From NCBI GenBank assembly GCA_963841435.1, contig CAWJCS010000003.1, positions 1,024,001 to 1,088,000 on the forward strand: a DNA stretch of 64,000 bases, read 5' to 3'. Source of the DNA: an uncultured delta proteobacterium. Its GTDB lineage: Bacteria > Myxococcota_A > Polyangia > Polyangiales > Polyangiaceae. Below are positions 4,377 through 50,172 of this stretch, piece after piece (positions within the stretch are counted from its first letter, which is position 1; every line of letters begins with the position of its first letter). A program made the position numbers and the translations under genes. The notes beneath the pieces are model-generated. The model did no database searches. It was not told where the DNA came from and worked only from the letters and a program-made list of their open reading frames with translations.

Positions 4377-4416
4377 GCCGAGCGACCGCGACGTTACCGC
4401 GCTCGGACGGCGGGGC

Positions 4417-5796
4417 TCAGTCGAACAGATGGCGTAGCAAGAGCTTCTTCACGCTCGTCGCATCGACGGCGCCTTCGGGAAGCAGCCGCGGCTCGGACGA
4501 CATGAAGAGCGGGCCGTCCTCGGCGCGGTCCGTCACGCGACCGTGCGACCCGCGGACGAGCCGCGCGTCGAGCGGGATCACGTCGAGCAGCGTGCGAAAC
4601 CCCAGCTTTCGCGCCAAAAGCTTGCGCCCGACCGTGAGCATGGGCACGGCGAGCGCCGGATCGAGGAAGAGCTCCACCGGGTCGTAACCGGGCTTCAGGT
4701 GGATATCGACGGTGCGCGCGTAGTCGGGAGCGCGATCCTCGTCGAGGAAGAAGTAGTAGGAAAACCAGCGATCGGCCTCCGCAATGGCGACGAGCTCTCC
4801 CGAGCGTTCGTGATTGAGGCCGAGCGCGCGTTGCTCCTCGCGGTCGAGGACGCGCTCGATGCCGTCGAGCCTCTCGACGAGGCGCCGCACCTCGTTCACG
4901 CGCGACGGGTCCTTCACGTACACGTGGGCAATCTGGTGGTCGGCGACGGCGAACGCATCGCTCGCGCCTGCGTCGAGCTGCTCGCGCCCGAGCTCTTCGC
5001 GCACGCGAAGCAGCTCGGCCTCGCGCAGCGCGCGGTTGAGGTGAACGGCGTCGTCAACGGCGGTCATGCCGTACTCCGAGAGAACGACGACGCGCAGCGA
5101 GCGCCGGCGTGCTAGCTCGAACAGCTCGCCACAGAGCGCGTCAACCTCGCCGAGCGCCTTATGAATGCGCGGATCGCCTGGGCCGAAGCGCTGCAGGTCA
5201 TAGTCGAGGTGCGGCAGGTACGTGAGCGTGAGCGTCGGCGCGTGCTCCTCGATGACGCGCGCCGTCGCCCGTGCAATCCAGCGCGACGACGCGATCCCAG
5301 CGCGCGGCCCCCAGAATTCGAACAGCGGGAAGCGACCGAGCTCCTCCGACAGCTTCTTCCCGAGCTCGGGCGGCTCGCCGTACACGTCGGGGATCTTGCG
5401 GCCATCGGCCGTGTACATCGGCCGCGGCGTCAACGAGAGGTCCGCCGTCGAGTACATGTTGTACCACCAGAAGAGCTTGGCGACGGTGAAGCTCGGGTCG
5501 CGACGTCGCGCGGCGTCCCAGATCTTTTCGCCGTGCACGAGGTGGTTCGACTGCCGCCAGAGCCACACCTGACCGAGATCACGAAAGTACCAGCCGTTGC
5601 CGACGATGCCGTGCTCGCGCGGCATGAGCCCCGTCACGAAGGTCGACTGCACCGAGCAGGTCACGGCCGGCGTGATCGTCGAGAGCGGCCGCCACGCGTT
5701 CTGATCGCGAAAGCGCAGAAGCTCGGGTGTGTGCGGACCGACGAGGCTCGGCGTCAGGCCGACCACGTCGAGGACGAGCGTGGGCGTCATCGTCAC
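4417..5796 (-). CDS. eboF: Alkaline phosphatase / nucleotide pyrophosphatase family protein EboF
   Basis: LDVVGLT, PAVTCSVQST, LPHLDYDLQRFG, DIHLKPGYDPVELF and GSHG motifs. Confidence 0.88.
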   Translation of the reverse strand: MTMTPTLVLDVVGLTPSLVGPHTPELLRFRDQNAWRPLSTITPAVTCSVQSTFVTGLMPREHGIVGNGWYFRDLGQVWLWRQSNHLVHGEKIWDAARRRDPSFTVAKLFWWYNMYSTADLSLTPRPMYTADGRKIPDVYGEPPELGKKLSEELGRFPLFEFWGPRAGIASSRWIARATARVIEEHAPTLTLTYLPHLDYDLQRFGPGDPRIHKALGEVDALCGELFELARRRSLRVVVLSEYGMTAVDDAVHLNRALREAELLRVREELGREQLDAGASDAFAVADHQIAHVYVKDPSRVNEVRRLVERLDGIERVLDREEQRALGLNHERSGELVAIAEADRWFSYYFFLDEDRAPDYARTVDIHLKPGYDPVELFLDPALAVPMLTVGRKLLARKLGFRTLLDVIPLDARLVRGSHGRVTDRAEDGPLFMSSEPRLLPEGAVDATSVKKLLLRHLFD

Positions 5797-8482: not shown

Positions 8483-9463
8483 ATGGCGGGGTTGCCCTCG
8501 CTCGCCGAGTTCCCGCCGTCGTTCCTGCTCGCCGTCGCGGTCGCTCTCGGGCTCGTGCTCGGTAGCTTCCTGAACGTCGTCATCCATCGCTTGCCGCGTG
8601 GCGAGAGCATTGCCTTCCCAGGGTCTCATTGCCCGGGCTGCGGCAAGCCCATCGCACCGCGCGACAACGTCCCCGTCCTAAGCTACCTGGTCTTGCGCGG
8701 GCGCGCTCGTTGTTGTGGCACGCGCATCTCACCGCGCTACCCGCTCGTGGAGGCGATCGGCGGTCTGCTCGCCTGGGCCATCATGAGCACGATCGTGCTC
8801 GACTTGCCGCTCGACACGTCGCTCGGTCGGGCCGCGGGGCTCTTCGCCGTCAATCTGGCGCTCGGGCTCGGCCTCGTCGCGGCGGCGTTCATCGATCTCG
8901 ATCACATGCTCTTGCCCGACGAGATCACGCTCGGCGGGCTCGTGCTCGGCATCGCGAGCGTCCCCTTGCGCCCGGGGGCAACGTTTCTCGAGTCGCTCAT
9001 CGGCGCGGCCGTGGGCTTCTTCATCGTGTGGCTGCCGTTCGGCCTCTTGTACAGGCTCGTCAGGGGCCGACACGGCATGGGTCTCGGTGACGCGAAGCTC
9101 GTCGCGCTCGCGGGGGCGTGGTTCGGGTGGCCCGGCGCCGCGTTCGCGCTGCTCGCGGGCGCCGTGCAAGCCACCGCCACCCTGCTCGTGGTCTTTTCGC
9201 TCGGCAAGAAGCTCGACGAGCCAGCGTCCGTCGTCGAGGAGCGCCGGGCGCTCCGCGCCGCCATCGAAGCCGCCGAAGGCCCGGAACGCGACGCCCTCGA
9301 GCGCGAGCTCGCCGAGGATCCGCTGGGCACCGAGCCCGACCCGGGGATCGGCGCGATGCGGCTGCCGTTCGGGCCGTTCATCGTGCTCGCCATCGTCGAA
9401 TACCTGCTCTTCGGCCCACTCATCCGCGCCGAGCTCTTCGGCGGTCTCGCCGACCTGCCGTGA
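8483..9463 (+). CDS. pilD: Prepilin peptidase / N-methyltransferase (A24)
   Basis: GSFLNVVIHRLP, SHCPGC, RYPLVE, FIDLD, MGLGDAKL and PFGPF motifs. Confidence 0.93.
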   Translation: MAGLPSLAEFPPSFLLAVAVALGLVLGSFLNVVIHRLPRGESIAFPGSHCPGCGKPIAPRDNVPVLSYLVLRGRARCCGTRISPRYPLVEAIGGLLAWAIMSTIVLDLPLDTSLGRAAGLFAVNLALGLGLVAAAFIDLDHMLLPDEITLGGLVLGIASVPLRPGATFLESLIGAAVGFFIVWLPFGLLYRLVRGRHGMGLGDAKLVALAGAWFGWPGAAFALLAGAVQATATLLVVFSLGKKLDEPASVVEERRALRAAIEAAEGPERDALERELAEDPLGTEPDPGIGAMRLPFGPFIVLAIVEYLLFGPLIRAELFGGLADLP

Positions 9464-9603
9464 GAGCGAGCCAGAGGGCGCCGGACAGGCGTCCGGCCTC
9501 GGACGAACGCGCTGTCCCCATCGAGCGAGGCGTGCGGCGAAGCGCGGGGAGACAAGCGACGAAAGAGCGGGAAATGGGCGGCAGTCGCCGCTCTCTGCGA
9601 GCC

Positions 9604-9619
9604 CGGCACGCCGCCTGCG
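9604..9619 (+). promoter_or_regulatory. Putative sigma-54 promoter
   Basis: CGGCACGCCGCCTGCG has GG-N10-GC spacing; SD-like GAGAGG precedes the ATG at 9646. Confidence 0.5.
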
Positions 9620-9645
9620 AGGCGAAGGGACTCGAGAGGTCAATC

Positions 9646-10056
9646 ATGGACATTCGAATCTTCCCCAAGAACGAGCTCCCCATCGCGCTCGGCACCGTGC
9701 GAGCCACCGACTCCCTGCCGACGCGCGACCAGGACCGCTTCCTCCGCGCGCTGTCTCGGCTACACGGGCAGGACATCGATCCGCGCACGCTGCCGGCGCC
9801 GAGCACCCCCGAGGTCGCCCTCGCCATCCAGAATCCACACCGGCGCAAGCGGCTCGTGGAGCTCGCCATCGTGATGAGCATGATCGGGCGCTTCCCGGCG
9901 GTCGCGGAGCGCTACCGCGCACTCGGCTCGCTGCCTCGAGGCAGCTTCGGGCGCGCCTATTACGAGCACTGTCGCTCGCGCAACTTCCCATTTCCGGGCG
10001 AGGCGAGCGGGATCCCCATCCCGCCGCTCGGATCGCCCGGCCAGCGCGCGGCGTGA
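9646..10056 (+). pseudogene. Short, probably deleted/truncated remnant of a Coq4-like protein
   Basis: RYRALGSLPRGSFGRAYYEH...FPGE resembles the Coq4-like LP.GTLG..Y segment, but the ORF ends before an HDxxH motif. Confidence 0.45.
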
Positions 10057-10148
10057 AGGACCGGGCGCCTCCGATCGGGCCGCGCTCACCCGGGCTTTCG
10101 GGTCGCTCGACGCCGTTGCTTGCCCTCGCCTATTGTCCGCCTTCCGCC

Positions 10149-10544
10149 ATGCCGCGCGCGTTTTTGCTCGGGCTCCTCGCGGTGCTCGCCTGCAGCCCGA
10201 TCACACGCCTGCCGCCGCGTGGTCCGCATCCCGCGCACGTGCAGGAGTTTTTGTCCGTGCCGTATCCGCCGCCACCTGCCGAGGTGGAGGAGATGAGCTA
10301 CCGGCACGACGACGACGACTGCGTGTGGATCGACGGCTACTACGCCTGGAACGGTCGCTGGGTGTGGCAGCGTGGAAAGTGGGTGCTGCCGCCCGCCGAT
10401 TGCTACTACGCGCCGTCCGTCGTCGCGTGGTCGAGGACCGCGGAGCCACGGCTCTACTTCACGCCGCCGCGCTGGTTCAAGAACGACGCCATCGCGCTGA
10501 GCGAAAGCCAGGCGGTGTGCCCCGCGCCCAAGGCATGCCGGTAG
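10149..10544 (+). CDS. Small lipoprotein with YXWGXW-like repeats
   Basis: Lipobox VLAC; PPPAEVE and VWIDGYYAWNGRWVWQRGKWV. Confidence 0.7.
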   Translation: MPRAFLLGLLAVLACSPITRLPPRGPHPAHVQEFLSVPYPPPPAEVEEMSYRHDDDDCVWIDGYYAWNGRWVWQRGKWVLPPADCYYAPSVVAWSRTAEPRLYFTPPRWFKNDAIALSESQAVCPAPKACR

Positions 10545-10672
10545 AGATCGATTCGCTGAGCTCCGTCGGGCGGCAGGCGCCAGGCGCACGCGAACCGACG
10601 AGCCGTGGCCGTTCGCGGGCTTGGCGCGAGCAGCGGCGAGCGCGCGCGTGCTCTGCTAAGGTCCGGCCCTCC

Positions 10673-12058
10673 ATGACTTTCGTATCCCACGTCTTTCGCG
10701 AGTACGACGTGCGCGGCGTGGCGGACCGTGACCTCACCGACGCGTTCGCCGAACGCATGGGTCGCGGCCTCGCCGAGCTGCTTCGACCGGACGGCGCGAC
10801 TCGCCCTCCACGCATCGCCGTCGGGCGCGATTGCCGCCTCTCTGGGCCTCGCCTGTTCGAGGCGCTCGCACGCGGCCTGATCGCGGGCGGCGCGAACGTC
10901 GTCAACGTGGGGGTGGGCCCCACGCCCAAGCTCTACTTCTCCGTCCATCACCTCGACGCCGACGGCGGCATCATGATCACGGGCAGCCACAACCCGGCCG
11001 AGGACAACGGCTTCAAGATCATGCGCGGCAAGGCGAGCTTCTTCGGCGACGCCATCCAGAAGCTCAGGACCCTGGTCGAAGGCCCGGCGCAGCCCACCGT
11101 TCCCGGCGGCTCGCTCGGCACCGAGGACATCGACGACGCGTACGTCGCGAGGCTCGTCTCCGACATCGCGCCCGGCCCGCGCGATTTCGAGATCGTCGTC
11201 AACGCCGGCAACGGCGCCGGTGGGCCGCTCGGGATCCGCGCGCTTCGCGCAGCAGGATTTTCGCCCGTTGCGCTCTTCTGCGACATGGATGGTCGCTTCC
11301 CGAACCACCATCCAGATCCGACGGTGCCGAAGAATCTGGAGACGCTCATTGCGCGCGTGCGCTCCGAGGGTGCGCGCGTCGGCATCGCGTGGGACGGCGA
11401 CGCGGACCGCCTGGGCGTCGTCGACGCGACGGGAGAAATCGTCTGGGGCGATCGGCTGCTCGCGCTGTTCGCGCGCGGCATCCTCGCGAAGAGTCCGGGA
11501 AGGGCCGTGATTGCCGACGTTAAGTGCTCGCAGGCGCTGTTCGACGACGTCGCGAAGCACGGCGGGCGCCCCATCATGTGGAAGACGGGACACTCGCTGA
11601 TCAAGACCAAGATGAAGGAGGAGCACGCGGCCGTCGCGGGCGAGATGAGCGGTCATTTCTTCTTCGCAGACCGCTATTTCGGCTACGACGACGCGCTCTA
11701 CGCCACGTTGCGGCTGCTCGAGCAGCTCGCGAGCAGCGGCCTCACCGTGCTCGAGGAGCTCGCCGACCTGCCGCCGTCGTTCTCGACGCCGGAGCTTCGC
11801 GTCGACTGCCCGGATGCGCTCAAGTTCGAGGTCGTCGAGCGCGTGCGCACGGCACTCGCCGACCGCGGGGAAACCAACACGCTCGACGGTGTGCGCGTGA
11901 AGTATCCGGACGGCGCCTGGTCGCTCGTGCGCGCCTCGAATACCGGTCCCGTGATCGTGCTGCGCTTCGAGGCGCCGAGCGAGGCCCGGCTCGCGGCGAT
12001 CCGGAACAACGTCGAGAGCGTCGTCGAAAAGGCGCGCGCGGCCAGCGGAGCGAAGTGA
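10673..12058 (+). CDS. algC: Phosphomannomutase/phosphoglucomutase
   Basis: FREYDVRG, TGSHNP, DGDADR, GEMSGH and RASNT motifs. Confidence 0.93.
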   Translation: MTFVSHVFREYDVRGVADRDLTDAFAERMGRGLAELLRPDGATRPPRIAVGRDCRLSGPRLFEALARGLIAGGANVVNVGVGPTPKLYFSVHHLDADGGIMITGSHNPAEDNGFKIMRGKASFFGDAIQKLRTLVEGPAQPTVPGGSLGTEDIDDAYVARLVSDIAPGPRDFEIVVNAGNGAGGPLGIRALRAAGFSPVALFCDMDGRFPNHHPDPTVPKNLETLIARVRSEGARVGIAWDGDADRLGVVDATGEIVWGDRLLALFARGILAKSPGRAVIADVKCSQALFDDVAKHGGRPIMWKTGHSLIKTKMKEEHAAVAGEMSGHFFFADRYFGYDDALYATLRLLEQLASSGLTVLEELADLPPSFSTPELRVDCPDALKFEVVERVRTALADRGETNTLDGVRVKYPDGAWSLVRASNTGPVIVLRFEAPSEARLAAIRNNVESVVEKARAASGAK

Positions 12059-27416: not shown

Positions 27417-29006
27417 GTGTTCGAGGCGCTGACCAAGGGATTTCGCGAGGCACAGAACCGCCTCGCGGGGCTGACGGAGCTCAACGAGAAGAACGTCCAA
27501 GTGGCGCTCGCCGAGGTGCGCACCTCGCTGCTCGAGGCCGACGTCGAGCTCGGGGTCGTGAAGCGATTTCTGGCGGACGTCGAAGCGAAGGCGCTCGGCA
27601 CCACGGTGCAGACGCGCGTGAAGCACGGCGGAGAAACCCACAAGGTGGGCGCCGGCGAGCAGTTCGTGAAGATCTGCCACGAAGAGCTCGTCGAGATGAT
27701 GAGCTTCGAGGGCGACCCGATCCGCTTCGACTCGCCACCCCCCACGGGCGTGATGATGGTCGGCCTGCAGGGCTCGGGCAAGACGACGACGGCCGCGAAG
27801 GTCGCGCGCTGGCTCACGGAGCAGGGCAAGGCGCCGCTGCTCGTCGCCGCCGACATGCAGCGGCCCGCGGCGGTCGAGCAGCTGCAGATCCTGGGCCAGC
27901 AAATCGACGTCCCGGTCTTCAACCTGGCCAACGAGTCGCCGCTCGAGATCTGCCGCGCGGCGCCGGCGGAAGCGGCGCGCCTCGGCCGCGACGTGATCGT
28001 GTACGACACGGCGGGCCGCCTCGCGGTGGACGAGCCGCTCATGCAGGAGCTCTCCGCCATCAAGCGCGCGGTCGAGCCGAGCAACGTGTTGCTCGTCGTC
28101 GACGCGATGATCGGCCAGGACGCCGTCAAAACGGCCAAAAGCTTCCACGAAAGGCTCGGCCTGAGCGGCGTCGTGCTCACCAAGCTCGATGGCGACGCCC
28201 GCGGCGGCGCAGCCCTCAGCGTGAAGGCCGTCACCGGCGCCCCCGTCGTCCTCACGGGCACGGGCGAGACACTCGACAAGCTCGAGCCGTTCAGGGCCGA
28301 GGGCATGGCGAGCCGCGTGCTCGGCATGGGCGACGTCGTGGGCCTGATTCAGGACTTCGAGAAGGTCGTCGATCAGAAGAAGGCCGAGGTCGACGCGCAG
28401 CGCATGATGCGCGGAGACTTCACGCTCGATGATTTCTTGAACCAGGTGCGCATGCTGCAGAAGATGGGCTCGCTCTCGGAGCTCGTCGACAAGATCCCGG
28501 GCCTTTCGGGCATGGTGCCGCCGGGCGCCGCACAGAGCCTCGATGATCGCGAGCTCGTGCGCATCGAAGCCATGATTCAATCGATGACGCTCGTCGAGCG
28601 CGACGACCCGCAGGTGCTGGTGCGCGAGCCCTCGCGCGTGAAGCGCATCGCCCGGGGCTCGGGCCAGCCCGCCGAGGGCGTGGGCGAGCTCGTTCAGAAA
28701 TTCTTGTTCATGCGCCAGATGATGGGCGGGCTCGGGCAGAACATGGGCCTGATGGGCAACATCCCGGGACTGCGCAACGTCGCGATGGCCAACCAGGCGC
28801 GAAAAGCCATGAAAGGGGGCCTGCCGGGCATGGGTATGCCCGGGATGGGGTTCCCGGGGATGGGCTTTCCGGGTATGGGCATGCCCGGATTCCCGTCAGC
28901 CGAGGAGGCGCCCCGCATGCGCGCGCTGTCGAAGGCCGAGCGAAACGCGAGGAAGAACCAGCGCAAGCGCGAGCGCGACGCACGCAAGAAAGGCAAGAAG
29001 CGATGA
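27417..29006 (+). CDS. ffh: Signal recognition particle protein
   Basis: GLQGSGKTTT, DTAGR, TKLDGDARGG and RVLGMGD; Met-rich M domain. Confidence 0.97.
   Translation: MFEALTKGFREAQNRLAGLTELNEKNVQVALAEVRTSLLEADVELGVVKRFLADVEAKALGTTVQTRVKHGGETHKVGAGEQFVKICHEELVEMMSFEGDPIRFDSPPPTGVMMVGLQGSGKTTTAAKVARWLTEQGKAPLLVAADMQRPAAVEQLQILGQQIDVPVFNLANESPLEICRAAPAEAARLGRDVIVYDTAGRLAVDEPLMQELSAIKRAVEPSNVLLVVDAMIGQDAVKTAKSFHERLGLSGVVLTKLDGDARGGAALSVKAVTGAPVVLTGTGETLDKLEPFRAEGMASRVLGMGDVVGLIQDFEKVVDQKKAEVDAQRMMRGDFTLDDFLNQVRMLQKMGSLSELVDKIPGLSGMVPPGAAQSLDDRELVRIEAMIQSMTLVERDDPQVLVREPSRVKRIARGSGQPAEGVGELVQKFLFMRQMMGGLGQNMGLMGNIPGLRNVAMANQARKAMKGGLPGMGMPGMGFPGMGFPGMGMPGFPSAEEAPRMRALSKAERNARKNQRKRERDARKKGKKR
28824..28895 (+). 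repeat. 15-bp degenerate repeat encoding (PGMG[M/F])n in the Ffh tail
   Basis: PGMGMPGMGFPGMGFPGMGMPGFP. Confidence 0.8.
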
Positions 29007-29779
29007 CACGCATCACCTGGAGCGCCGCCCTTTTGCTGCCGCTCGCCATCGGCTGCGCGACGCGCTCGGAGCCGAGCGGTGAGGGCACCTCCACCAGCGG
29101 CGTCCTGTCGAGCATGCCCGCCGAGGTCGGCACGCGCACCCGCGTGGACTTCGGGGGCACGCTCGAGCTGCTCGGCTGGGACCTGAGCGCCACGACGGCC
29201 GAGCCCGGCGCGACCCTGCACCTCAGCTCGTACTTCCGCGTGACGCGGCCGCTCGCTCCCGGCTACAGCGTGGTCACCGAGCTCGTGCCGCTCGGCCCGC
29301 TCGCCAAACCGCCCGCCGAGGACGACGACGAGAAGCCCGAGGCAGACGCCGCACCGGACGAAAAACAGGCCCCCGAGGTGACCGCGCTCGCAAAGCCCTG
29401 GCCCGACGGGACGCCCACCTTCGCGATCGTGGTTGACGAGCGCGACATCGAGGTGCCAAAAGACGTGACGGCGCCGTCCCTCTCGCTCGCGCTCAGCATC
29501 GCGCACGACCCCGTGCAGGTCGAAGGCGCGGAGATCGAAGGGCTCTCGGCGCTCCGGCTGCCCATCCTCAGCGGCCTGTCGGACGGCGACGGGCGTGCTC
29601 TCGTCGCGCGGCTCGCGACGGGCGTCGTGCCGGGCCAGGCGCGCGCCCAGAAAGGTCAGCGACGCAAGCTCGATCGGCGGCGGCGTCCCCCCGGCAATCG
29701 GGCACCTCGGCCCGCGCTGAGCGCTCTGCGCCGCGCCTTTCCGCTCCACCCCCCGGTGGTCCCCAAGGAGAATCCATGA
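29003..29779 (+). CDS. Hypothetical lipoprotein
   Basis: Lipobox AIGC; ATGA overlaps at both ends. Confidence 0.7.
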   Translation: MTRITWSAALLLPLAIGCATRSEPSGEGTSTSGVLSSMPAEVGTRTRVDFGGTLELLGWDLSATTAEPGATLHLSSYFRVTRPLAPGYSVVTELVPLGPLAKPPAEDDDEKPEADAAPDEKQAPEVTALAKPWPDGTPTFAIVVDERDIEVPKDVTAPSLSLALSIAHDPVQVEGAEIEGLSALRLPILSGLSDGDGRALVARLATGVVPGQARAQKGQRRKLDRRRRPPGNRAPRPALSALRRAFPLHPPVVPKENP

Positions 29780-31170
29780 AGACGCGTGCCCTCATTGCCT
29801 TGCTCGCGCTGGCGCTCGCCGCGGGCTGTTCGAAAAAGACGACTCCGAGCGAGGGCGGGTCGAAGCTCAAGGCGTACGTGCTCAACACCGCACCCGCGCT
29901 GGACCACCCTCTCGACGTCGACTTCGACGGTAAGGTCGAGCTCATCGGGTACAAGGCCCCCTCCTCCACCATCAAGCCGAACCAGAAGGTGAAGCTGACG
30001 CTCTACTGGAGGGTCAAGCAGAAGGTGAGCGGCGACTGGCGCTTGTTCACGCACGTGCTCGACGGCTCCGGCGATCGCGTCCTGAACCTCGACCACCACA
30101 GCGCGATCCGCGCGGGAAAGAGCAAGCCCGCACTGCCACCCTCGGTCTGGATTCCCGGCAAAGTGTACGTTGACGAGCTCACCTTCAAGGTGCCGAAGCG
30201 CGTGAAGACGGACCGCATCCGCGTCGTCGCGGGACTGATGAGCGGCGACATCCGCATGCCGATCGTCAAGGGCCAGAAGGACAGCGAGCACCGCGCCATC
30301 GTGGCCGATCTCAAGTTTCAGCCCTCGATCAAGCGCAGCAGCGCCGTGCCGGACGTTTTCATCGAGAAGCTCGACTCCTCCGTCAAGATCAAGATCGACG
30401 GCAAGCTCGACGAGGACGCCTGGTCGAAGGCGCTCGTGCTCGGCCCGTTCGTCGACGTGAAGACGGGCGACCCGAACAAGACCTTCCCCGTCAACGGCAA
30501 GGGCCGTCTGCTCTGGAACGATCAGGCGCTCTACGTCGGGGTCGAGGTCGAGGAGAAGAACGTCGTCGGCGGCTTCCGCGCGGACGAAAAGGATCCCCAC
30601 CTCTGGACCAAGGATACGATCGAGATCATGATCGATCCCGACTGGGATCGCAAAAACACCGACTATTACGAGATCCAGATCAATCCACAGAACCTCGTGT
30701 TCGACACGCAGTGGGACGACTACAATGCCCCCAAGCCGACGCCGAACGGGCCGTTCGGACACGAGGACTGGTCCGCGGAGCTGAAGAGCGCCGTCGTCGT
30801 CGACGGGACGATCGACAAGAGCGACGACACAGACAAGGGCTACACCGTCGAGGCGATGCTCCCCTGGAAGAGCTTCAGCAAGGCGAAGCAGACGCCGCCA
30901 GCGCTGGGCGACGCGTGGCGCATCAACCTCTACGCCATGCGGGAGAACTCCGGCGTCGCGTGGTCGCCGATCCTCGGCCGCGGCAACTTCCACCGCTCGG
31001 CTCGCTTCGGGCGCGTGCACTTCGTGAAGAAGGGATTCGTCCCGCCGGGCGCGAGCGCGTCGGCGGCCGCGTCGGCTTCGGCGGCGCCGAGCAGCGCACC
31101 ACCGCGCGCGAGCGCCAAGCTGCCCGCGCCAACCGCTCCGAAGCCCGCAAGCTCCGGCGCCATGAAGTAG
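29776..31170 (+). CDS. Lipoprotein with carbohydrate-binding family 9 (DOMON-like) domain
   Basis: Lipobox AAGC; IDGKLDEDAW, LWNDQALYV, DTIEIMIDP, YYEIQINP and WRINLY; SD AAGGAG. Confidence 0.8.
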   Translation: MKTRALIALLALALAAGCSKKTTPSEGGSKLKAYVLNTAPALDHPLDVDFDGKVELIGYKAPSSTIKPNQKVKLTLYWRVKQKVSGDWRLFTHVLDGSGDRVLNLDHHSAIRAGKSKPALPPSVWIPGKVYVDELTFKVPKRVKTDRIRVVAGLMSGDIRMPIVKGQKDSEHRAIVADLKFQPSIKRSSAVPDVFIEKLDSSVKIKIDGKLDEDAWSKALVLGPFVDVKTGDPNKTFPVNGKGRLLWNDQALYVGVEVEEKNVVGGFRADEKDPHLWTKDTIEIMIDPDWDRKNTDYYEIQINPQNLVFDTQWDDYNAPKPTPNGPFGHEDWSAELKSAVVVDGTIDKSDDTDKGYTVEAMLPWKSFSKAKQTPPALGDAWRINLYAMRENSGVAWSPILGRGNFHRSARFGRVHFVKKGFVPPGASASAAASASAAPSSAPPRASAKLPAPTAPKPASSGAMK

Positions 31171-34819: not shown

Positions 34820-36382
34820 GCACGCGCTACTACGACGCCATCGTGCTCGGCCGTTCGCTCGGCAGCCTCGCGACGGCTGCGCTGCTCGCCCGCCGCGATT
34901 TCCGCGTGCTCTTGCTCGGCAACGGGCAGCGACCCTCGAGCTACCGTTTCGACGGCCGCTGGCTCGGACGGCGCACGTTCTCGTTGCTCTTCGGCGCGTC
35001 GCCGGTCTGGCGGCGCATCCTCCACGAGCTGGCGCAGAGCCCGCAATTTCGCCGGCGCGTCACGCCGCTCGATCCCATGTTCGCCGTGCTCGCAGGCGAG
35101 CACCGGATCGAGCTGCCGCCCGACGTTCGAGCGCTTCGGTCGCGAGATCGATCGCGAATTCCCCGAGGTGCGCCAGGTGGTGGACGAGCTCTACCGCACG
35201 ATCGCCGACGTCAACGGCGCGACGGACGCTGCGTTCGAGCGCGATGCCGTCTGGCCCCCCGGCACGCTGTGGGAGCGCCTCGAGACGAGCCAGGCGGCGG
35301 CGGCGCTGCCCTTCGAGCGCGGCGAGCGCGCCCCCGAGCTTTTCGCCAAGTTCCCGAGCGGCCACCCCTTCCGAGAGATCGTCGCGATTCCGGCGCAGTT
35401 CGGCAGCCACCTCGCGGCGAGCCTGTCCGAGCTGCCCGCGCTGTCCCTCGCGCGCCTGCACGGCGCGTGGGCGCGTGGCGTGGTCGCGCTCAAGGGCGGC
35501 GAGCAAGAGCTTTCGGCGTTCCTCATCGAGCGCATCGAGGCGCACGGCGGGGTCTGCCTGCTCGATCGAAGGGCCCAGTCGCTCGTCGTGCGCAACGGTT
35601 CCGCCGCCGGCGTCGTGCTCGACGGCGACGACGAGGTCACGGGAGCGAGCGCCGTCATCACCGATCAGTGGGGCGAATCGCTCGCGGAGCTTTCGGGCGG
35701 CGACGGTGTGACGCGCGCCGCTCAGCGCGAATGGCCGCGCCTGACGCCGGAAACGGGACGGTTCATCGTGACGATGGTGGTGCGGCGCGAAGCCCTGCCC
35801 GAGCCGCTACCCGAGGAAGTGTTCATCGCGCCACCAGGCTCGCCGCGCGACCCGCGGCGCCCCGTGCTCCACCTGCAGAGCGTTCTCCCCGCACCGCGCG
35901 CCGACGGTGCTCCCGACGAGAACGAAGCACTGCTCGTCGCCGAGTGCCTCGTGCCCACGCGAGGCGCACTCACGCTGCTCGAGGCGCGGCGCGCCGTCGT
36001 CGAGGTGCTAAAGAGCGAGCTCGTGTTTCTCGACGACCATTTGCTGGTCCTGGACTCGCCGCACGACGGGCTGCCACTCGAAGATCGGACGACGGGCACG
36101 GTCCGGGAGATCGACCGGTTGCACCTCGTGGGAGCCGCGCCGGGGGCGGAGCCGATGGAGCGACAGTACGCCGTTGACCCGCCGGGCTATCGCGGCCTGT
36201 CGGGCGAGCCCCTCCGGGGCCCGATTCCCGGGACGTTCCTGGTCGGGCCGACGGTCTTGCCCGCGCTCGGTCAGGAAGGCGAGCTCATGGCAGCCTGGAG
36301 CGTCGCGCGTCTCATCACGCGACGTGACCGCACCCGTCAGCGCATGCGGCAAAAGCTCTGGTCCAAGCTCGAGACCACGTGA
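34816..36382 (+). CDS. Phytoene-dehydrogenase-like FAD-dependent oxidoreductase; +1 frameshift near 35128
   Basis: YDAIVLG...ATAALLAR N-terminus in one frame joins ERFGREIDREFPEVRQ in the 35168 frame; GTGA overlaps at both ends. Confidence 0.7.
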
Positions 36383-44145: not shown

Positions 44146-44183
44146 CCGTCACCAGCTCGTCACGCGTCCGTCACGCATTGACG
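44146..44183 (+). promoter_or_regulatory. Pho-box-like site: three CGTCAC direct repeats with 11-bp period, then TTGACG
   Basis: GTCAC at 44148, 44159 and 44170, immediately upstream of phoU-pstSCABB. Confidence 0.75.
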
Positions 44184-44216
44184 GTGGAAGTAAGCGAAAA
44201 GGACCGCTGCGCCGCC

Positions 44217-45308
44217 ATGACACACTTCGAAGAGACCCTCGAGCGTGACGCGGCGCGCATTCGGCGCAAGATGCAGGAGATGGCCGGCCTGTGCGGCATG
44301 GCGCTCGAAGGCTGCCTGAAGGCGCTCGCGGAGAAAAATCGCCAGCTTGCCTACTCGGTCATCATGCGCGACCAGCGCATCGACGAGCTGGAAAAGGAAA
44401 TCGACAGGCTTTGCCTCGAGTTCATCGTGCGCCAACAACCGGTCGCCGGCACGCTGCGTTTCGTGTACGCAACGATCAAGGTGAACTCGGAGCTCGAGCG
44501 CGTCGGCGACTACGCCGAAAGCATGGCCCGGCAAATCCTCTTGCTCTCGGAGCTCGACGTGCGGGTTCCCATCGAGCGCTTCCGGGAGATTGCGGGGCTC
44601 GCGATCCCCATGTTCCACGGCGCCGTCGAAGCGTTCCTCGCCCAAGACCCCGATCGGGCTCGTCGCACGATGGAGAGCGAGGAACCGGTCGATCGACTGC
44701 GCCATGACCTGAGCAGCGATCTCATCCAGATGCGCCAGGACCAGGAAATTCCGCTCGAGGCGCTCGCGCCGCTGATGGCAATCGTCAACCGCTTCGAGCG
44801 GGTCGCCGATCAGGCGAAGAGCATCTGTCAGGAAGCAATCTACGTGAGCACGGGGGAGTACCTGAAGCACTCGGGTAGCGAGGTCTTTCGTGTGCTGTTC
44901 GTCGACGAGCACAATGCCTGTCGCAGTCAAATGGCGGAGGCCGTCGGTATCGCGCTCGGGCAGCCGAAGTTCGTGTTCACGAGCGCAGGGCTCGACCGCG
45001 AGCCAGTCGACCCCGGCACCATCAGGATCCTCACGGAACACGGCATCGACGTTTCACATCTCACGGCGAAAACCGTCGCCCAGGTGCCGCACCTCGACCA
45101 CTACCAAATCATCGTGGCGCTCGCAAAAGAGGCCCGACGCGTGTTTCCGCCGCCTCCGACCAAGGCCGTGTGCCTCGACTGGAGTATGCCGGATCCCTCC
45201 AAGTTGGGGGGCACGCCCGAGCAGGTTCGCGAAGCCTACGACCGAACGTACAAGGCCCTGGAAGGCTATGTCCGAGACCTCGTGGAGGCCGTCCTCGGCG
45301 ACGGCTAG
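44217..45308 (+). CDS. phoU: Phosphate signalling protein PhoU fused to a C-terminal LMW-PTP/ArsC-fold domain
   Basis: DQRIDELE, QQPVA, ELERVGDYA and ERVADQA (PhoU); VLFVDEHNACRSQMAEA, SAG and WSMPDPS (LMWPc). Confidence 0.9.
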   Translation: MTHFEETLERDAARIRRKMQEMAGLCGMALEGCLKALAEKNRQLAYSVIMRDQRIDELEKEIDRLCLEFIVRQQPVAGTLRFVYATIKVNSELERVGDYAESMARQILLLSELDVRVPIERFREIAGLAIPMFHGAVEAFLAQDPDRARRTMESEEPVDRLRHDLSSDLIQMRQDQEIPLEALAPLMAIVNRFERVADQAKSICQEAIYVSTGEYLKHSGSEVFRVLFVDEHNACRSQMAEAVGIALGQPKFVFTSAGLDREPVDPGTIRILTEHGIDVSHLTAKTVAQVPHLDHYQIIVALAKEARRVFPPPPTKAVCLDWSMPDPSKLGGTPEQVREAYDRTYKALEGYVRDLVEAVLGDG

Positions 45309-45321
45309 TGAAGGAAGAACC

Positions 45322-46269
45322 ATGACTAAGCAAACTTGGATTCTTGCCGCCTCGCGCGGCCTGCCGCTGGCGCGCCGCGCCGTCACCCTGGGCATCGTGG
45401 CGTTGTTGGCGGGCGGAGCCTGCAAGAAGAAGGCGGACACTTCTCAGGAAAGCGCTGGGGCGACCCCGGACAAGCTCTCGGTCCAGAACATCGGGTCCGA
45501 CACCATGGTGAATCTCGCCCAGGCCTGGGCGGAGGAGTACGCGAAGGTGGAGCCGAACGTCTCCGTCGAGGTCTCCGGTGGCGGCTCCGGCGTCGGGATC
45601 GCTGCGCTCATCAACAAGACAGCCGACATTGCCAATGCGAGCCGCAAGATGGAGCCCGAAGAGATGGAGAAGGCCAAGGCGAACGTCGGGGCGATGCCGA
45701 CGGAATTCTTGGTGGGCTACGACGGGCTCGCGGTCTACGTGAACAAGGACAACCCGCTCGATAGCATCAGCATCGAGGAGCTCGGCGGCATCTATCGTGA
45801 GGGCGGCACGATTTCACACTGGGCGCAGGTCGGCGTCGCAGGCATCCCCGGCTCGAAAAGCGACGACATCATCCGCATCAGCCGCCAGAACAACTCGGGC
45901 ACGTATGCGTATTTTCGCGAAACCGTCGTCGGCAAGGGGCATGACTACAAGCCTGGGTCTCTCGACATGAACGGCTCGAAGGACGTCGTCGAGCAGGTGG
46001 CGAAGACCCCCGGCGCCATCGGCTACGCCGGTCTCGGCTATGCGACGCACGAGGTGAAAATCCTCAAGGTTTCCGCGAAGAAAGGCGAACCCGGCGTGCT
46101 GCCGAGCATCGCCACCGTGCACGACAAGAGCTATCCGATCTCCCGACCGATGTTCATGTACACGCCGGGGGCACCCGCGCCACACGTCAGGAAGTACATC
46201 GAGTGGACCATGTCACCCGCTGGTCAGAAGATCGTGGAGGAGACGGGGTACGTCCCGCTGCTGCGGTAG
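45322..46269 (+). CDS. pstS: Phosphate ABC transporter substrate-binding lipoprotein
   Basis: GSDTM, GGGSGVG, DIANASR, RQNNSGTY and YPISRP. Confidence 0.95.
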   Translation: MTKQTWILAASRGLPLARRAVTLGIVALLAGGACKKKADTSQESAGATPDKLSVQNIGSDTMVNLAQAWAEEYAKVEPNVSVEVSGGGSGVGIAALINKTADIANASRKMEPEEMEKAKANVGAMPTEFLVGYDGLAVYVNKDNPLDSISIEELGGIYREGGTISHWAQVGVAGIPGSKSDDIIRISRQNNSGTYAYFRETVVGKGHDYKPGSLDMNGSKDVVEQVAKTPGAIGYAGLGYATHEVKILKVSAKKGEPGVLPSIATVHDKSYPISRPMFMYTPGAPAPHVRKYIEWTMSPAGQKIVEETGYVPLLR

Positions 46270-46275
46270 GCCACC

Positions 46276-47244
46276 ATGGAGGAACGCGTCGTGGATGTGT
46301 CCCCTCAGTCGGCCCCGGGTGCTAGCTCGGTAGCCGTGCGCCCGCGCCCCCACGTGCGGCGACGGCCGTGGGAGCAGCCACTCGAGATCGGCCTCGAGTG
46401 GCTGATTCGCGTGTGCGGCGTCAGCGCCATCCTCTTCGTCTTCAGCATCTTCTTCTTCGTCTTCCGTGAAGGCGTCGGCATGCTGTTCGGCGGGCTCGAC
46501 CTCACGCAGTTCTTCTTCTCCACCGAGTGGTACCCGACGTCGGTGAGGCACGTCCGCTACGGCGCGCTCGCTCTGATCGTCGGAACCTTCAGCGTTACGT
46601 CGCTCGCGATGTTCATCGCCGTGCCGTTCGGGCTCGGCGGAGCCGTGTTCGTCTCCGAGTTCTGCGGCCCGCGCCTGCGCGAGACACTGAAGATCGTCAT
46701 CGAGCTCCTCGCCGCCATTCCCTCGGTGGTCTGGGGCTTCATCGGGCTCTCGGTCATGAATCCCCTGATTCAGGAGCTCTTCCACGTACCCGTGGGGCTC
46801 AACGTGCTGAACGGTGCGCTCCTGCTCGCTCTGATGAGCGTTCCCATCATGGTGAGCATCGGCGAGGACGCGCTCAAGGCCGTGCCCGATTCGTATCGCG
46901 AGGCTGCGCTCGCGATGGGCGCCACGCGCTGGCAGGCCGTCTACCGCGTGCTCCTGCCAGCGGCGCGCAATGGCCTGCTCGCCGCCGTCCTGCTCGGCGT
47001 CGGGCGCGCCGTCGGCGAGACCATGGCCGTCCTGATGGCGACCGGGCACGCCATCAACATCCCGAAGAGCATCTTCGATCCGGTCCGGACCCTCACCGCC
47101 ACCATCGCCGCCGAGCTCGGCGAGGCGTCCGTGGGCTCCGCACACTACCAGGTGCTGTTCGTCATCGGCATCCTGCTTTTCACCATCACTTTCGTCGTGA
47201 ATCTCGTCGCCGACCTCGTGGTCAAGGGCACGGGCAAGGAATAG
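46276..47244 (+). CDS. pstC: Phosphate ABC transporter permease
   Basis: ELLAAIPSVVWG, EAALAMGATRW and GRAVGETMAV. Confidence 0.95.
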   Translation: MEERVVDVSPQSAPGASSVAVRPRPHVRRRPWEQPLEIGLEWLIRVCGVSAILFVFSIFFFVFREGVGMLFGGLDLTQFFFSTEWYPTSVRHVRYGALALIVGTFSVTSLAMFIAVPFGLGGAVFVSEFCGPRLRETLKIVIELLAAIPSVVWGFIGLSVMNPLIQELFHVPVGLNVLNGALLLALMSVPIMVSIGEDALKAVPDSYREAALAMGATRWQAVYRVLLPAARNGLLAAVLLGVGRAVGETMAVLMATGHAINIPKSIFDPVRTLTATIAAELGEASVGSAHYQVLFVIGILLFTITFVVNLVADLVVKGTGKE

Positions 47245-47247
47245 CGC

Positions 47248-48132
47248 GTGTTCACCGAGACTCCCCACATCAAGAGGAAACGCCGCGAGGAGCGGCTGAT
47301 GCACGTCATCCTCGGCCTGATGGCGGGCGCCATGGTCGTGCCGCTCGTGGTCATCGTCACCTACCTCCTCGTGCAGGCGTGGCCGCTCCTGTCGCTCGAT
47401 TTTCTGCTGACGAACCCGGCGGGAGGCATGCGCCGAGGCGGCATCTGGTCCGCGCTGCTCGGCACCTTCTACCTGGTGACGACGTCGCTCTTGATCGCGG
47501 CGCCCATCGGCGTGCTCGCTGCCGTCTACCTGAACGAGTACGCGAAGAAGAACGTCTTCACGCGCATCATCAACCTCGCCGTCGTGAACCTCGCGGGGGT
47601 GCCCAGTATCGTTCACGCCCTGTTCGGGCTCGGCGCGTTCGTGCTCTTCGCGGGCATCGGCCGCTCGATCCTCGCGGCCTCGCTCACGCTGGCGATCATG
47701 ACGTTGCCCGTGATCATCGCCAGCACGAAGGAGGCGCTTTCCTCCGTCCCCATGTCGTTCCGTGAGGCCTGCTGGAACGTGGGGGCGACGCGCTGGCAGA
47801 CGATCCGCGGCATCGTCCTGCCGAATTCGATCAGCGGGATCCTCACGGGCGTCATCCTGCAGGTGTCGCGCACGGCAGGTGAAACGGCTCCCATCATGTT
47901 CACCGGCGCCGTTTTCTTCAAGAAGATCCCGGAGGGTGACCTCTTTGCCTACAACCTGACGGATCAGTGCATGGCCCTCTCCATGCATTTGTTCACGATC
48001 ACGACCCAGGTCACGGAGGCGCCCCACGCGCTTCCCTATGCCACCGCCGTCGTGCTGCTCGGCGCCGTGTTGCTCGTCAACGCCGCGGCCATCTTGGTGC
48101 GAGTCAAGCTGCGCGCGAGGAAGAAGTGGTAG
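47248..48132 (+). CDS. pstA: Phosphate ABC transporter permease
   Basis: YLNEYA, LAGVPSIV and AGETAPI. Confidence 0.95.
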   Translation: MFTETPHIKRKRREERLMHVILGLMAGAMVVPLVVIVTYLLVQAWPLLSLDFLLTNPAGGMRRGGIWSALLGTFYLVTTSLLIAAPIGVLAAVYLNEYAKKNVFTRIINLAVVNLAGVPSIVHALFGLGAFVLFAGIGRSILAASLTLAIMTLPVIIASTKEALSSVPMSFREACWNVGATRWQTIRGIVLPNSISGILTGVILQVSRTAGETAPIMFTGAVFFKKIPEGDLFAYNLTDQCMALSMHLFTITTQVTEAPHALPYATAVVLLGAVLLVNAAAILVRVKLRARKKW

Positions 48133-48905
48133 AAGCCGCCCCCGCTCACGGGCGCGCGAAGATCGCGGTGAGCGATCTTCGCCTGAGATACGGGGACCGA
48201 GAGGTGATTCACGGCATCTCGTTCGACGTCGAACCGAACGAGATTTTCGCCGTCATTGGACCCGCCCAATCCGGCAAGAGCTCGCTTTTGCGGTGCTTGA
48301 ATCGGACCATCGAGTTCGAGCCCGAGGCGCGGGCCTCGGGCTCGATCCGCATCGACGGTCTCGACGTCTCCATGGTGAAGAACGTCTACGAGCTCCGGCG
48401 CCGCGTGGGCATGGTGGCTCCGCTGCCCGTCGGCTTGCCCCTCAGCATTTACGAGAACGTCGCGTTCGCGCCGAGGGCCTCCGGCCTACGCGACAAAGCC
48501 GAGCTCGACGCCCTGGTCGAACGCTGCCTCAGGCAGGCCGCGCTGTGGGACGAGGTGAAGGATCGACTGCATTCGCTCGGTACCAAGCTCTCCGGTGGGC
48601 AGCAGCAGCGGCTCACGATCGCGCGCGCGCTGTCGCACGAGCCCGAGATCCTGTGTCTCGACGAGTTCTCGATTGCCATCGATCCCGTGACCACGATGCG
48701 CATCGAAGAGGTCCTGAAAAAGCTCAAGCAGCAGATGACGATCGTGCTCGTCACCAATCTGGTCCAGCAGGCTCGCCGGCTCGCGAGCCACACCATGTTC
48801 CTGTGGAACGGCGAAATCATCGAGGTGGGGACGACCGATCTGTTGTTCTCGGACAAGCCGAAGGACCAGAGAACCTACGACTACGTGAACGGCATCTTCG
48901 GATGA
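48126..48905 (+). CDS. pstB: Phosphate ABC transporter ATP-binding protein, copy 1 (degenerate Walker A, Q-loop and H-switch)
   Basis: GPAQSGKS, ALWDEVKDRL, LSGGQQQR, LDEFSIAID and VTNL. Confidence 0.88.
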   Translation: MVEAAPAHGRAKIAVSDLRLRYGDREVIHGISFDVEPNEIFAVIGPAQSGKSSLLRCLNRTIEFEPEARASGSIRIDGLDVSMVKNVYELRRRVGMVAPLPVGLPLSIYENVAFAPRASGLRDKAELDALVERCLRQAALWDEVKDRLHSLGTKLSGGQQQRLTIARALSHEPEILCLDEFSIAIDPVTTMRIEEVLKKLKQQMTIVLVTNLVQQARRLASHTMFLWNGEIIEVGTTDLLFSDKPKDQRTYDYVNGIFG

Positions 48906-49712
48906 TGGCGGCGCTACGTTCCACCGCGCCGCCGCCGGAGACGCTCGAGGGCGGCGGGATCGAGACCCGAGAGCTGTCGCTGTGGTACGCCGACTTTCAG
49001 GCGCTCCACGCCGTGACGCTCAGCATGAAGCGCGGCCTCATCACCTCGCTGATTGGTCCGTCGGGCTGCGGCAAGACCACGCTTCTACGCTGCTTCAACC
49101 GCGTCAACGAGCGCTACGGCTACGTGCGCACGACCGGCGAGATTCGCATCCTCGACAAGAATATCTACGACCCGGACGTTTCACTCGTCGAGCTCAGAAA
49201 GTCCGTGGGCATGGTGTTTCAGCGCCCGAACCCGTTGCCCATTTCCGTGTACGAGAACGTGGCGTTCGGGCTGCGCATCCACCATCCGCGCTCGGAGCTC
49301 AAGAAATCGCACGTCGACGAGGCCGTGGCCAAGGCGCTCACCGAGGTCGGTCTGTTCGACGACCTCAAGGACCGCCTGTCCAGCCGTGCCACCGACCTAC
49401 AGCTCGAACAGCAGCAGAAGCTCTGCATCGCGCGCCTCTTGCCGGTCCAGCCGAAAATCATCCTCATGGACGAGCCGTGCTCGGCGCTCGAACGTCGAGG
49501 GGACGCGCGCCATCGAGGAGCTGATGTGGACGTTGCGAGGCCGCTACACGATCGTCATCGTGACGCACAACATGGCCCAGGCGCGGCGCGCCAGCGACGA
49601 ATGCATCTTCATGTTGCTCGGCGAAATCATCGAGCACCGGCGCACCGAGGATCTGTTCCTGACGCCCTCGGACCCGCGCACGGCGGAGTACGTCGAAGGG
49701 CGCTACGGCTGA
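48902..49712 (+). CDS. pstB: Phosphate ABC transporter ATP-binding protein, copy 2 (degenerate signature); +1 frameshift near 49491
   Basis: GPSGCGKT, MVFQRPNP, LQLEQQQK and MDEPCSAL, then VTHNMAQA...YVEGRYG in the next frame. Confidence 0.88.
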
Positions 49713-49746: not shown

Positions 49747-50172
49747 TCACTCTCGACCTGGAAGTTCCAGCGCCGCGCGACCCAGACGGGCGCGCAGCGC
49801 GTTGACGATACGAAGCACGCGGGGACGCGCGATGAGCCGGCGCTCGAGGCGCCGCTTGCCCGGAAAATCGAGCAGCACGATGCCGAGGACGATGGTGAGG
49901 ATCCCCTGCCCCGGCAGGATCAACATCAGAACCCCCGCGACGACGAGCACCGCTCCGAGCACGTTTTTCAGCACGCGCCGCGCCATCCCGAGCGGGCTCG
50001 CCGCGTCCGCCCGGGGCTCCTCGCGCACGAGGTAATTCGCGGGCAGCCGGGCGACAACGAGTGGCACGACGAGCGCGCCGAGCAAGAACGCCAGCCCCGA
50101 TAGCACGGCCAGGCCCTCGAGCCTCCCCGGGGTGAGGACGCTCCGAACGGCGACCAGGAGACGCTCGGGCAA
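49747..50172 (-). CDS. Small membrane protein (PGPGW-like)
   Basis: GVLMLILPGQGILTI...LDFPGKRRLE. Confidence 0.7.
   Translation of the reverse strand: MPERLLVAVRSVLTPGRLEGLAVLSGLAFLLGALVVPLVVARLPANYLVREEPRADAASPLGMARRVLKNVLGAVLVVAGVLMLILPGQGILTIVLGIVLLDFPGKRRLERRLIARPRVLRIVNALRARLGRAALELPGRE

Follow-up and report, generated by a model that had tools for sequence, protein, structure and literature searches.

The window analysed here is a 64,000-nucleotide stretch of contig CAWJCS010000003.1 from an uncultured delta proteobacterium of the Polyangiaceae, with a G+C content of 69%. One operon for phosphate uptake (Pst) lies on its + strand at positions 44178-49712, with the gene order phoU-LMWPc, pstS, pstC, pstA, pstB1, pstB2 (Table 1). 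The subject of this work is the last two genes, which encode a tandem pair of PstB nucleotide-binding subunits with complementary deviations in their ATP-site motifs. The stop of pstA and the start of pstB1 overlap by 7 bases, and the stop of pstB1 is overlapped by the ATG of pstB2 at 48902 (ATGA); both overlaps fit coupled translation. Named homologues are few and come from Polyangiaceae and Verrucomicrobia metagenome bins.

Table 1. Genes, motifs and frameshift site of the pst operon, in window coordinates.
Feature	Position	Strand	Basis
phoU fused to an LMWPc/ArsC-like domain, 376 amino acids, first gene of the operon	44178..45308	+	matches to TIGR02135 (PhoU) and PF01451 (LMWPc)
pstS, periplasmic phosphate-binding protein, 315 amino acids, start inferred	about 45322..46269	+	open reading frame; match to PstS reading frames in 28 of 30 window-type loci
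pstC, permease	46276..47244	+	open reading frame and comparison with related loci
pstA, permease	47248..48132	+	open reading frame and comparison with related loci
pstB1, degenerate nucleotide-binding subunit, 259 amino acids, GTG start	48126..48905	+	translation, family match, homologues
PstB1 Walker A, GPAQSGKS, P-loop consensus kept	48258..48281	+	translation and homologues
PstB1 Q-loop position, MVAPLP, Ala replacing the canonical Gln (PstB: MVFQxP)	48411..48428	+	translation and homologues
PstB1 signature, LSGGQQQR, intact	48588..48611	+	translation and homologues
PstB1 Walker B and D-loop, ILCLDEFSIAID, Asp-Glu kept, D-loop altered	48648..48683	+	translation and homologues
PstB1 H-loop position, Asn211 for His (LVTN)	48756..48758	+	translation and homologues
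pstB2, N-terminal part, ATG at 48902, second ATG at 48905	48902..49489	+	translation, family match
PstB2 degenerate signature, LQLEQQQK	49397..49420	+	translation and homologues
pstB2 frameshift site, four bases where homologues have the D-loop Asp codon	49490..49493	+	translations, alignment, frame plot
pstB2, C-terminal part in the shifted frame, stop at 49712	49494..49712	+	translation, homologue alignment

The best family for both PstB1 and PstB2 was TIGR00972 (PstB, an NCBIfam equivalog), with full-length coverage. Residues 13-259 of PstB1 match model positions 2-248, and the two parts into which a frameshift divides PstB2 match positions 2-175 and 179-248. Both proteins are encoded together with pstS, pstC and pstA, as is expected of PstB. 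The scores (278.2 bits for PstB1; 217.3 and 77.4 bits for the PstB2 parts) all lie under the family cut-off of 343.2, as does the 314.4 bits of P0124, an intact homologue of PstB2. The general PF00005 scores of 86.2 bits for PstB1 and 93.0 bits for the N-terminal part of PstB2 exceed the gathering cut-off of 25. No NCBIfam model separates the PstB1 from the PstB2 type, and in annotation both proteins are simply labelled as phosphate ABC transporter ATP-binding protein (ABC, ATP-binding cassette).

All motifs that the initial annotation had listed for PstB1 (GPAQSGKS, MVAPLP, LSGGQ, DEFSIAID and the exchange of the H-loop His for Asn) are present in the translation, but two of its descriptions were too strong. 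The Walker A, termed altered, does differ from that of usual PstB but is not broken, as it still fits GxxxxGK[ST] and Lys51 is invariant. The DEFSIAID stretch differs behind the Walker B, including the D-loop, but the Walker B Asp-Glu itself is intact. It forms part of ILCLDEFSIAID, which occupies the place of LLMDEPCSALD in PstB, so that the D-loop SALD becomes IAID. Among 32 aligned homologues of PstB1, Lys51, Asp179, Glu180 and the A-loop Tyr22 were invariant, as were about 130 columns in total. PstB2 had been described as canonical in Walker A, Walker B, Q-loop and H-loop His, with LQLEQ as its signature, and its translations bear this out: apart from the signature it reads GPSGCGKT, MVFQRP, IILMDEPCSAL and IVTHNM, with the His codon at 49566-49568.

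The proposal of complementary degeneracy depended on conservation of these substitutions, which was looked for in 120 homologues of each protein. In the window PstB1 and its 120 closest homologues (76-87% identity), MVAPLPVGLP, [IV]LCLDEFSIAID and the H-loop Asn were each found in 121 of 121 rows, LSGGQQQR in 120 and GPAQSGK[ST] in 116. The 120 closest homologues of PstB2 all carry LQLEQQQK, GPSGCGK[TS] and the Q-loop Gln, and 119 have the H-loop His, the remaining row being truncated. The substitutions are thus invariant or nearly so, and random decay is excluded.

Related loci were collected with a profile of 32 PstB1 homologues in DNA from one genome per species. The best 80 of at least 599 matches were taken, all PstB-like open reading frames (ORFs) in these 80 loci were examined, and five motifs were extracted. 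Thirty loci are of the window type, here called class I, in which the first gene has DEFSIA[IV]D, the H-loop Asn and a Q-loop without Gln. A PstB2-type gene lies directly downstream of the PstB1-type gene in 28 of the 30, in L003 about 700 bases further downstream. At the other two (L012 and L027), the contigs stop at the end of pstB1 or at most 152 bases past it. The second gene of class I has a canonical Walker A, Q-loop, Walker B and H-loop, and its signature is L[QTS][LM]E[QKA]QQK or LLLEQQQK. A milder split, class II, was found at 24 of the 80 loci, with both genes at 23 of them and a contig edge 207 bases after the first gene at the last (L030). Its first gene has GPA[NKG]SGK, a replaced Q-loop Gln (mostly by Ala), a normal DEPCSGLD, the H-loop Asn and LSGGQQQR, and its second gene departs from the canonical form only in the signature, which reads, for example, LSLEQ, LTLEQ, LSGEQ, LSDEQ or LSEEM. 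The remaining 26 loci hold canonical PstB only.

At every pair, the gene order is B1 then B2. Among the readable PstB ORFs, no first-gene copy has a broken LSGG core (a fragment at L045 reads LSGGHQQR) and no second-gene copy lacks the Gln or the His; among those of class I and II pairs, no single protein combines both kinds of deviation. The complementary changes claimed in the initial annotation are therefore conserved in homologues and related loci alike, and its view of PstB1 and PstB2 as a pair is upheld by the co-occurrence of the genes and by the mirrored trees described below. Scores against TIGR00972 follow the classes: a canonical single PstB (358 bits) and the second genes of class II (350-380 bits) pass the cut-off, the first genes of class II (323-338 bits) just fail it, and the second and first genes of class I (314-321 and 277-278 bits, respectively) fail.

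By record titles, class I occurs in Verrucomicrobiota, Planctomycetota, Acidobacteriota, Poribacteria, Myxococcota, Bdellovibrionota, Gemmatimonadota, Fibrobacterota, Binatota and one bin filed as Deferribacterota. Class II occurs in Planctomycetota, Omnitrophota, Thermodesulfobacteriota, Bacillota (Eubacteriales), Nitrospirota, Pseudomonadota, Myxococcota and Firestonebacteria, and both classes together cover at least 15 named phyla. The PstS, PstC and PstA proteins of class I loci score closest to those of the window and apart from those of the other loci. This agrees with the earlier suggestion of a distinct Pst subtype, and such a subtype does exist. When 1.84 billion cluster representatives were searched with PstB1, the best 150 matches comprised 23 of class I, 4 of the class II first-gene type, 21 with a deviating signature, 87 canonical and 15 partial proteins, figures that give no prevalence because clustering at 50% collapses the family.

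A third PstB-like protein was seen at three Poribacteria loci (L006 at 8615-10938, L011 at 8664-11163 and L014 at 8708-11043), where a weak PstA/PstC-like ORF, the third PstB-like protein and then PhoU come after the B1-B2 pair. These third proteins deviate on both sides, with MVFRKP in the Q-loop, LSIGQQQL or LSTGQQQL as signature, CGELD in the D-loop and an H-loop Asn, and they form a clade of their own (support 100) beside the B1 clade.

The descent of the pair was followed in a maximum-likelihood tree of 135 PstB rows (quick search, LG+G4, branch support by the Shimodaira-Hasegawa-like approximate likelihood ratio test, SH-aLRT), which is unrooted and whose sample is biased by the choice of loci. 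All B1 proteins of classes I and II form one clade (SH-aLRT 98), and all B2 proteins form another (SH-aLRT 99). The class I clades of B1 and B2 (support 100 each) sit inside or beside the class II rows of their own kind. After removal of the five motif regions, B2 is still one clade (97), with support of 100 for class I B2 and 88 for class I B1; the grouping of all B1 then needs two changes, and no well-supported branch demands more than one origin. Sister groupings recur in both halves of the tree (L035/L042, L031/L043, L050/L060, L061/L069, L022/L024, L023/L029 and L006/L011/L014), and the pairwise distances of B1 and B2 correlate with r = 0.885 over 47 loci. In class I, the mean pairwise identity is 63% for B1 and 67% for B2, and within one locus B1 and B2 share 39% identity in class I and 49% in class II.

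The mirrored clades point to one old duplication inherited as a pair. Afterwards, the two copies would have lost complementary motifs, been passed on jointly and, in class I, diverged further. The milder class II spans many phyla, and the class I of the window is a further derived form. The window PstB1 groups with Verrucomicrobia, Acidobacteria and Fibrobacter rows, and this crossing of phylum lines within class I suggests that the operon was transferred as a whole. What the comparison shows is the motifs and how well they are conserved, that the two genes occur as a pair, and that they descend jointly. One of the 26 canonical loci (L057, 5988-7708, Gemmatimonadaceae) also has tandem PstB genes; both copies are canonical and are placed apart in the tree, so tandem pstB seems to have arisen there independently.

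An ABC ATP site consists of Walker A, Walker B and the A-, Q- and H-loops of one domain together with the signature of the other (PMC7756269; this and the other articles cited by PMC number are drawn on in excerpt). In a PstB1 homodimer both sites would lack the Gln and the His, and in a PstB2 homodimer both would contain LQLEQ. Only the combination of PstB1 and PstB2 yields one fully canonical site, which, together with the practically invariant LSGGQQQR of PstB1, can be read as an obligate heterodimer. To our knowledge, the LSGGQ signature has no use besides completing the ATP site of the partner. We therefore consider it likely that PstB1 and PstB2 are obligate partners in a heterodimer in which one ATPase site is of consensus type and the other is impaired but probably binds ATP.

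In this arrangement, a single PstSCA(B1)(B2) phosphate importer would contain two unlike nucleotide-binding subunits, the products of pstB1 and pstB2. The Walker A, Q-loop Gln, Walker B and H-loop His of PstB2 would complete the consensus, hydrolysing site with the LSGGQ of PstB1. The impaired site would combine the Walker side of PstB1, without the Q-loop Gln and with Asn for His, with the LQLEQ of PstB2. As the A-loop Tyr, the Walker A Lys and the Walker B Asp-Glu are all retained in PstB1, this second site probably still binds ATP with slow or no turnover, and it may hold the dimer together while the first site drives transport. The degenerate site of exporters has likewise been proposed to hold ATP and to keep the domains together (PMC7756269). 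The initial annotation had all changes concentrated in one composite site. This is right for those of the Q-loop, the H-loop and the signature, but the D-loop of PstB1 does not fit the rule. In ABC dimers generally, the D-loop points at the ATP site of the partner; by this architecture, the changed D-loop of PstB1 would be turned towards the active site and might couple both sites.

Several points weigh against the heterodimer with a single working site. Two different domains are encoded and inherited together here, as in known asymmetric dimers, but the loss of the catalytic Walker B Glu, described as the hallmark of degenerate sites (PMC7544095), did not occur: E180 is invariant in 32 of 32 PstB1 rows. 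Moreover, ABCC1 is reported to have still transported when the H-loop His of its active site was exchanged for Asn or Gln (PMC7756269), so the exchange of His for Asn alone need not kill hydrolysis. With the Glu kept and Asn tolerated in ABCC1, the PstB1 site may retain some turnover, and "one active site" should be taken as a statement on rate, which we infer. A second subunit is not always obligatory either, as extra PstB2 can replace PstB1 in Enterococcus faecalis (PMC12096839). The 80 loci, being the best of a larger set, give counts without prevalence information, and as they were picked via PstB1, co-occurrence covers the direction from PstB1 to PstB2 only. The existence of a physical heterodimer, how active each site is, and a regulatory use, if there is one, are all inferred.

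Two further lines of evidence on physical contact also carry limits. A complex was predicted for a homologous B1-B2 pair (P0019 and P0125, both listed with a longest contig of 321,535 bases and so probably from the same contig) with two ATP and two Mg. It scored 0.59, with 0.03 for the best of three controls; the runs agreed in at least 88% of contacts, and the predicted local distance difference test score of the partner was at least 87. In calibration, 116 of 157 solved complexes and 2 of 215 mismatched pairs attained the mark, but with scores of 0.60 or less only 18 of the 157 solved complexes did so, along with both passing mismatches; the use of own alignments and riding ligands for P0019 and P0125 departs from this calibration. 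The score gives weak support, as it may reflect likeness to solved ABC dimers and cannot tell the heterodimer from homodimers. Predicted fused proteins were also considered as proof of contact. A search for longer relatives gave 120 proteins, 14 of which have two ATPase domains, four of them of the window type (P0244, P0245, P0246 and P0258). By best match, there were also 15 PstA-PstB1 fusions, the joins of 12 of which were inspected. In these 12 and the four window-type B1-B2 fusions, some 20-130 unmatched residues stand beside the join, and the fused proteins are mostly single-member clusters (P0248 has six members). The joins look like frameshift read-throughs of overlapping genes, and the fusions were rejected as proof of contact.

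The invariant catalytic Glu, Walker A Lys and A-loop Tyr of PstB1, as well as the tolerance of ABCC1 for Asn in the H-loop of its active site (PMC7756269), would also suit a PstB1-PstB2 heterodimer in which both sites hydrolyse ATP and the substitutions only retune rates or coupling. We regard this as distinctly unlikely, since the deviations at the Q-loop Gln, at the H-loop His and at both signature glycines of the partner occur together, arose early, and are seen in both classes, a pattern known from impaired sites such as that of Pdr5, whose degenerate signature is LNVEQ (PMC7756269). Very unlikely, in our view, is a transporter driven by PstB2 homodimers, in which PstB1 would not be part of the motor but have an accessory or signalling role, for instance with PhoU or PhoR as its partner. 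Such a division of labour has a model in E. faecalis, where PstB2 cannot be dispensed with and PstB1 is an accessory that extra PstB2 can replace (PMC12096839), and the gene order, with the catalytically complete copy second, is the same. However, LQLEQ would then sit in both sites, and PstB1 would keep LSGGQQQR (120 of 121 rows), a motif whose only known role is to complete the site of a partner; the E. faecalis pair is canonical in both proteins and hence a different case. That the deviating motifs mark decay, with one or both genes being pseudogenes on their way to loss, would agree with the scores of both proteins under the TIGR00972 cut-off, and yet it has virtually no chance of being right. 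The deviating residues are invariant in 120 homologues of each protein and over at least 10 named phyla, and PstB1 is conserved about as well as PstB2. At the family level, the decay reading is thus refuted by the conservation of the motifs, the paired loci and the identity figures of PstB1 and PstB2.

A separate matter is the break in pstB2 of this genome. The first frame reads ...DEPCSAL up to 49489 and the second resumes with VEGTRAIEEL at 49494, and the 25 homologues shown across the join all read SALD-VEGTRAIEEL without a break. The four bases in between thus stand for one Asp codon, which makes one extra base; the frame plot switches at about 49485. If the frameshift were real, the pst system would be inactivated here: PstB2 would lose the D-loop Asp and the H-loop and run on to 50035, and the transporter of this organism would lose its only consensus site. 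The extra base is present in the sequence, and the frame plot of the whole window gave no other clear frameshift, only weak candidates near 29700 and 35100, so the assembly is not riddled with indels. On the other side, a single residual indel in a contig of 1.55 Mb is a common assembly error, the homologues across the join show no break, and the 72 residues behind the break are 97% identical to P0124, the nearest intact homologue, versus 91% before it, with no sign of relaxed selection. We therefore hold a real frameshift to be a serious possibility, although somewhat doubtful. No decay is seen in the part behind the break, and the break is either a residual assembly indel or a very recent mutation. 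Programmed frameshifting was considered and rejected, as 49487-49496 provides neither a slippery nor a stop-codon context and the homologues shown there are in frame. The frameshift concerns this genome and does not touch the family. As for the weak candidates, one long ORF (34820-36382) spans the weak phase switch at about 35100, which is probably composition noise, and the one at about 29700 is a weak same-strand phase switch where the ORFs 29006-29779 and 29437-31170 overlap.

In the first gene of the operon, residues 22-227 match TIGR02135 with 152.9 bits (cut-off 130.25, exceeded) and residues 239-365 match PF01451. The initial annotation had tied the fusion of PhoU and LMWPc to the distinct Pst subtype. 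A fixed link was not borne out: as a single ORF upstream of pstS, it was found in 12 of the 22 class I loci with enough upstream DNA (L001-L005, L007, L008, L010, L013, L015, L016 and L022), eight class I loci being too short for this count. The other ten have plain PhoU downstream or none in view, and the fusion is absent from the 24 class II loci and from the 26 canonical loci alike. It thus belongs to part of class I and is not a defining companion of the PstB pair. In the window, the loop of the fused LMWPc domain reads FVDEHNACRS, so the first Cys of the CX5R phosphatase loop is Asp. Among 11 aligned related fusions (L001-L005, L007, L008, L010, L013, L015 and L016), this position is Asp in ten and Gly in one, and the Arg of the loop is not always kept. 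The Cys is present in the stand-alone LMWPc ORFs beside phoU at L049 and L059 (FVC[IV]ENSCRS). The fused domain resembles a module that has no catalytic function and perhaps binds phosphate.

The two loci just named (L049 at 1341-2445, Omnitrophota; L059 at 3352-4489, Planctomycetales) have their LMWPc gene between pstB and phoU and a single canonical PstB; the link between PhoU and LMWPc thus recurs outside the fusion. A predicted protein of 641 amino acids (P0294, a single-member cluster) joins canonical PstB, PhoU and LMWPc in one chain and may be either a true fusion or a read-through. Downstream of the operon, an ORF of 141 residues on the - strand (49747-50172) converges on the end of pstB2; it is rich in G+C at third positions and contains hydrophobic stretches.

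Bacteria import phosphate at high affinity mainly through Pst, from which Pho signalling takes its input; the system is modelled on Escherichia coli, with a pair of identical PstB subunits and two equal ATP sites. The present comparison points to a large conserved Pst group, in Myxococcota, Verrucomicrobiota, Planctomycetota, Acidobacteriota, Poribacteria, Omnitrophota, clostridia and others, for which a model of two identical PstB subunits cannot hold. As functional asymmetry has been studied mostly in exporters, the PstB pair could serve as a type I importer test case, with graded intermediates (canonical, class II and class I) and a catalytic Glu that is conserved in the impaired site. The finding is also relevant to how much energy phosphate uptake costs in oligotrophic environments. 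A more far-reaching version, in which Pst of classes I and II is an obligate heterodimer with a single hydrolytic site and one ATP per cycle where two are otherwise spent, and in which the PstB1 site, permanently loaded with nucleotide, is the point where PhoU (in 12 loci and in the window fused to an LMWPc-like domain with its catalytic Cys replaced) controls transport and Pho signalling, is speculative and rather unlikely to apply in full; if true, a degenerate site with a regulatory role would be conserved in a type I importer that depends on a binding protein.

The closest known system is PstSCAB of E. coli (PDB 9k3x, 9k3y and 9k3s), which has pstS, pstC, pstA and pstB with phoU in the same order as here and whose PstB aligns with PstB1 over the full length (E = 1.4e-64). 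There, two identical PstB subunits are placed one on PstA and one on PstC (PMC12976172). While this transporter uses two copies of one canonical PstB with symmetric binding of two ATP (PMC12976172), the window encodes two subunits that are about 39% identical. Adjacent pstB genes in a pst-phoU operon are also known from E. faecalis and other Firmicutes, where the tandem was called a "unique and unstudied feature" and all motifs are canonical in both E. faecalis copies (PMC12096839). The second copy is indispensable there, and no complementary degeneracy is described in the excerpt of that work (PMC12096839). The window pair falls outside this Firmicute type, as the motifs of both its PstB1 and PstB2 deviate. 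In Bacillus subtilis, a survey modelled PstBA with PstBB and, within the excerpt, noted degeneracy for RbsA and NupO only (PMC11466899). No prior description of complementarily degenerate PstB pairs was found in the Creative Commons PMC and bioRxiv literature searched.

Deviations on one Walker side together with the signature of the other domain are known from TM287/288, TmrAB, TAP, CFTR, ABCC1 and Pdr5, and the LNVEQ of Pdr5 resembles the LQLEQ of PstB2 (PMC7756269). These systems are exporters, most of them without the catalytic Walker B Glu, whereas the window encodes a binding-protein-dependent type I importer that keeps the Glu and has lost the Q-loop Gln and the H-loop His. RbsA and NupO of B. 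subtilis are importers that were judged from sequence to have one degenerate ATP site, but in these type II importers the two domains are fused and the Walker A Lys is lost (PMC11466899). Asymmetric pairs of ABC ATPases are thus a known kind; what would be new is their occurrence in the main phosphate importer and across many phyla.

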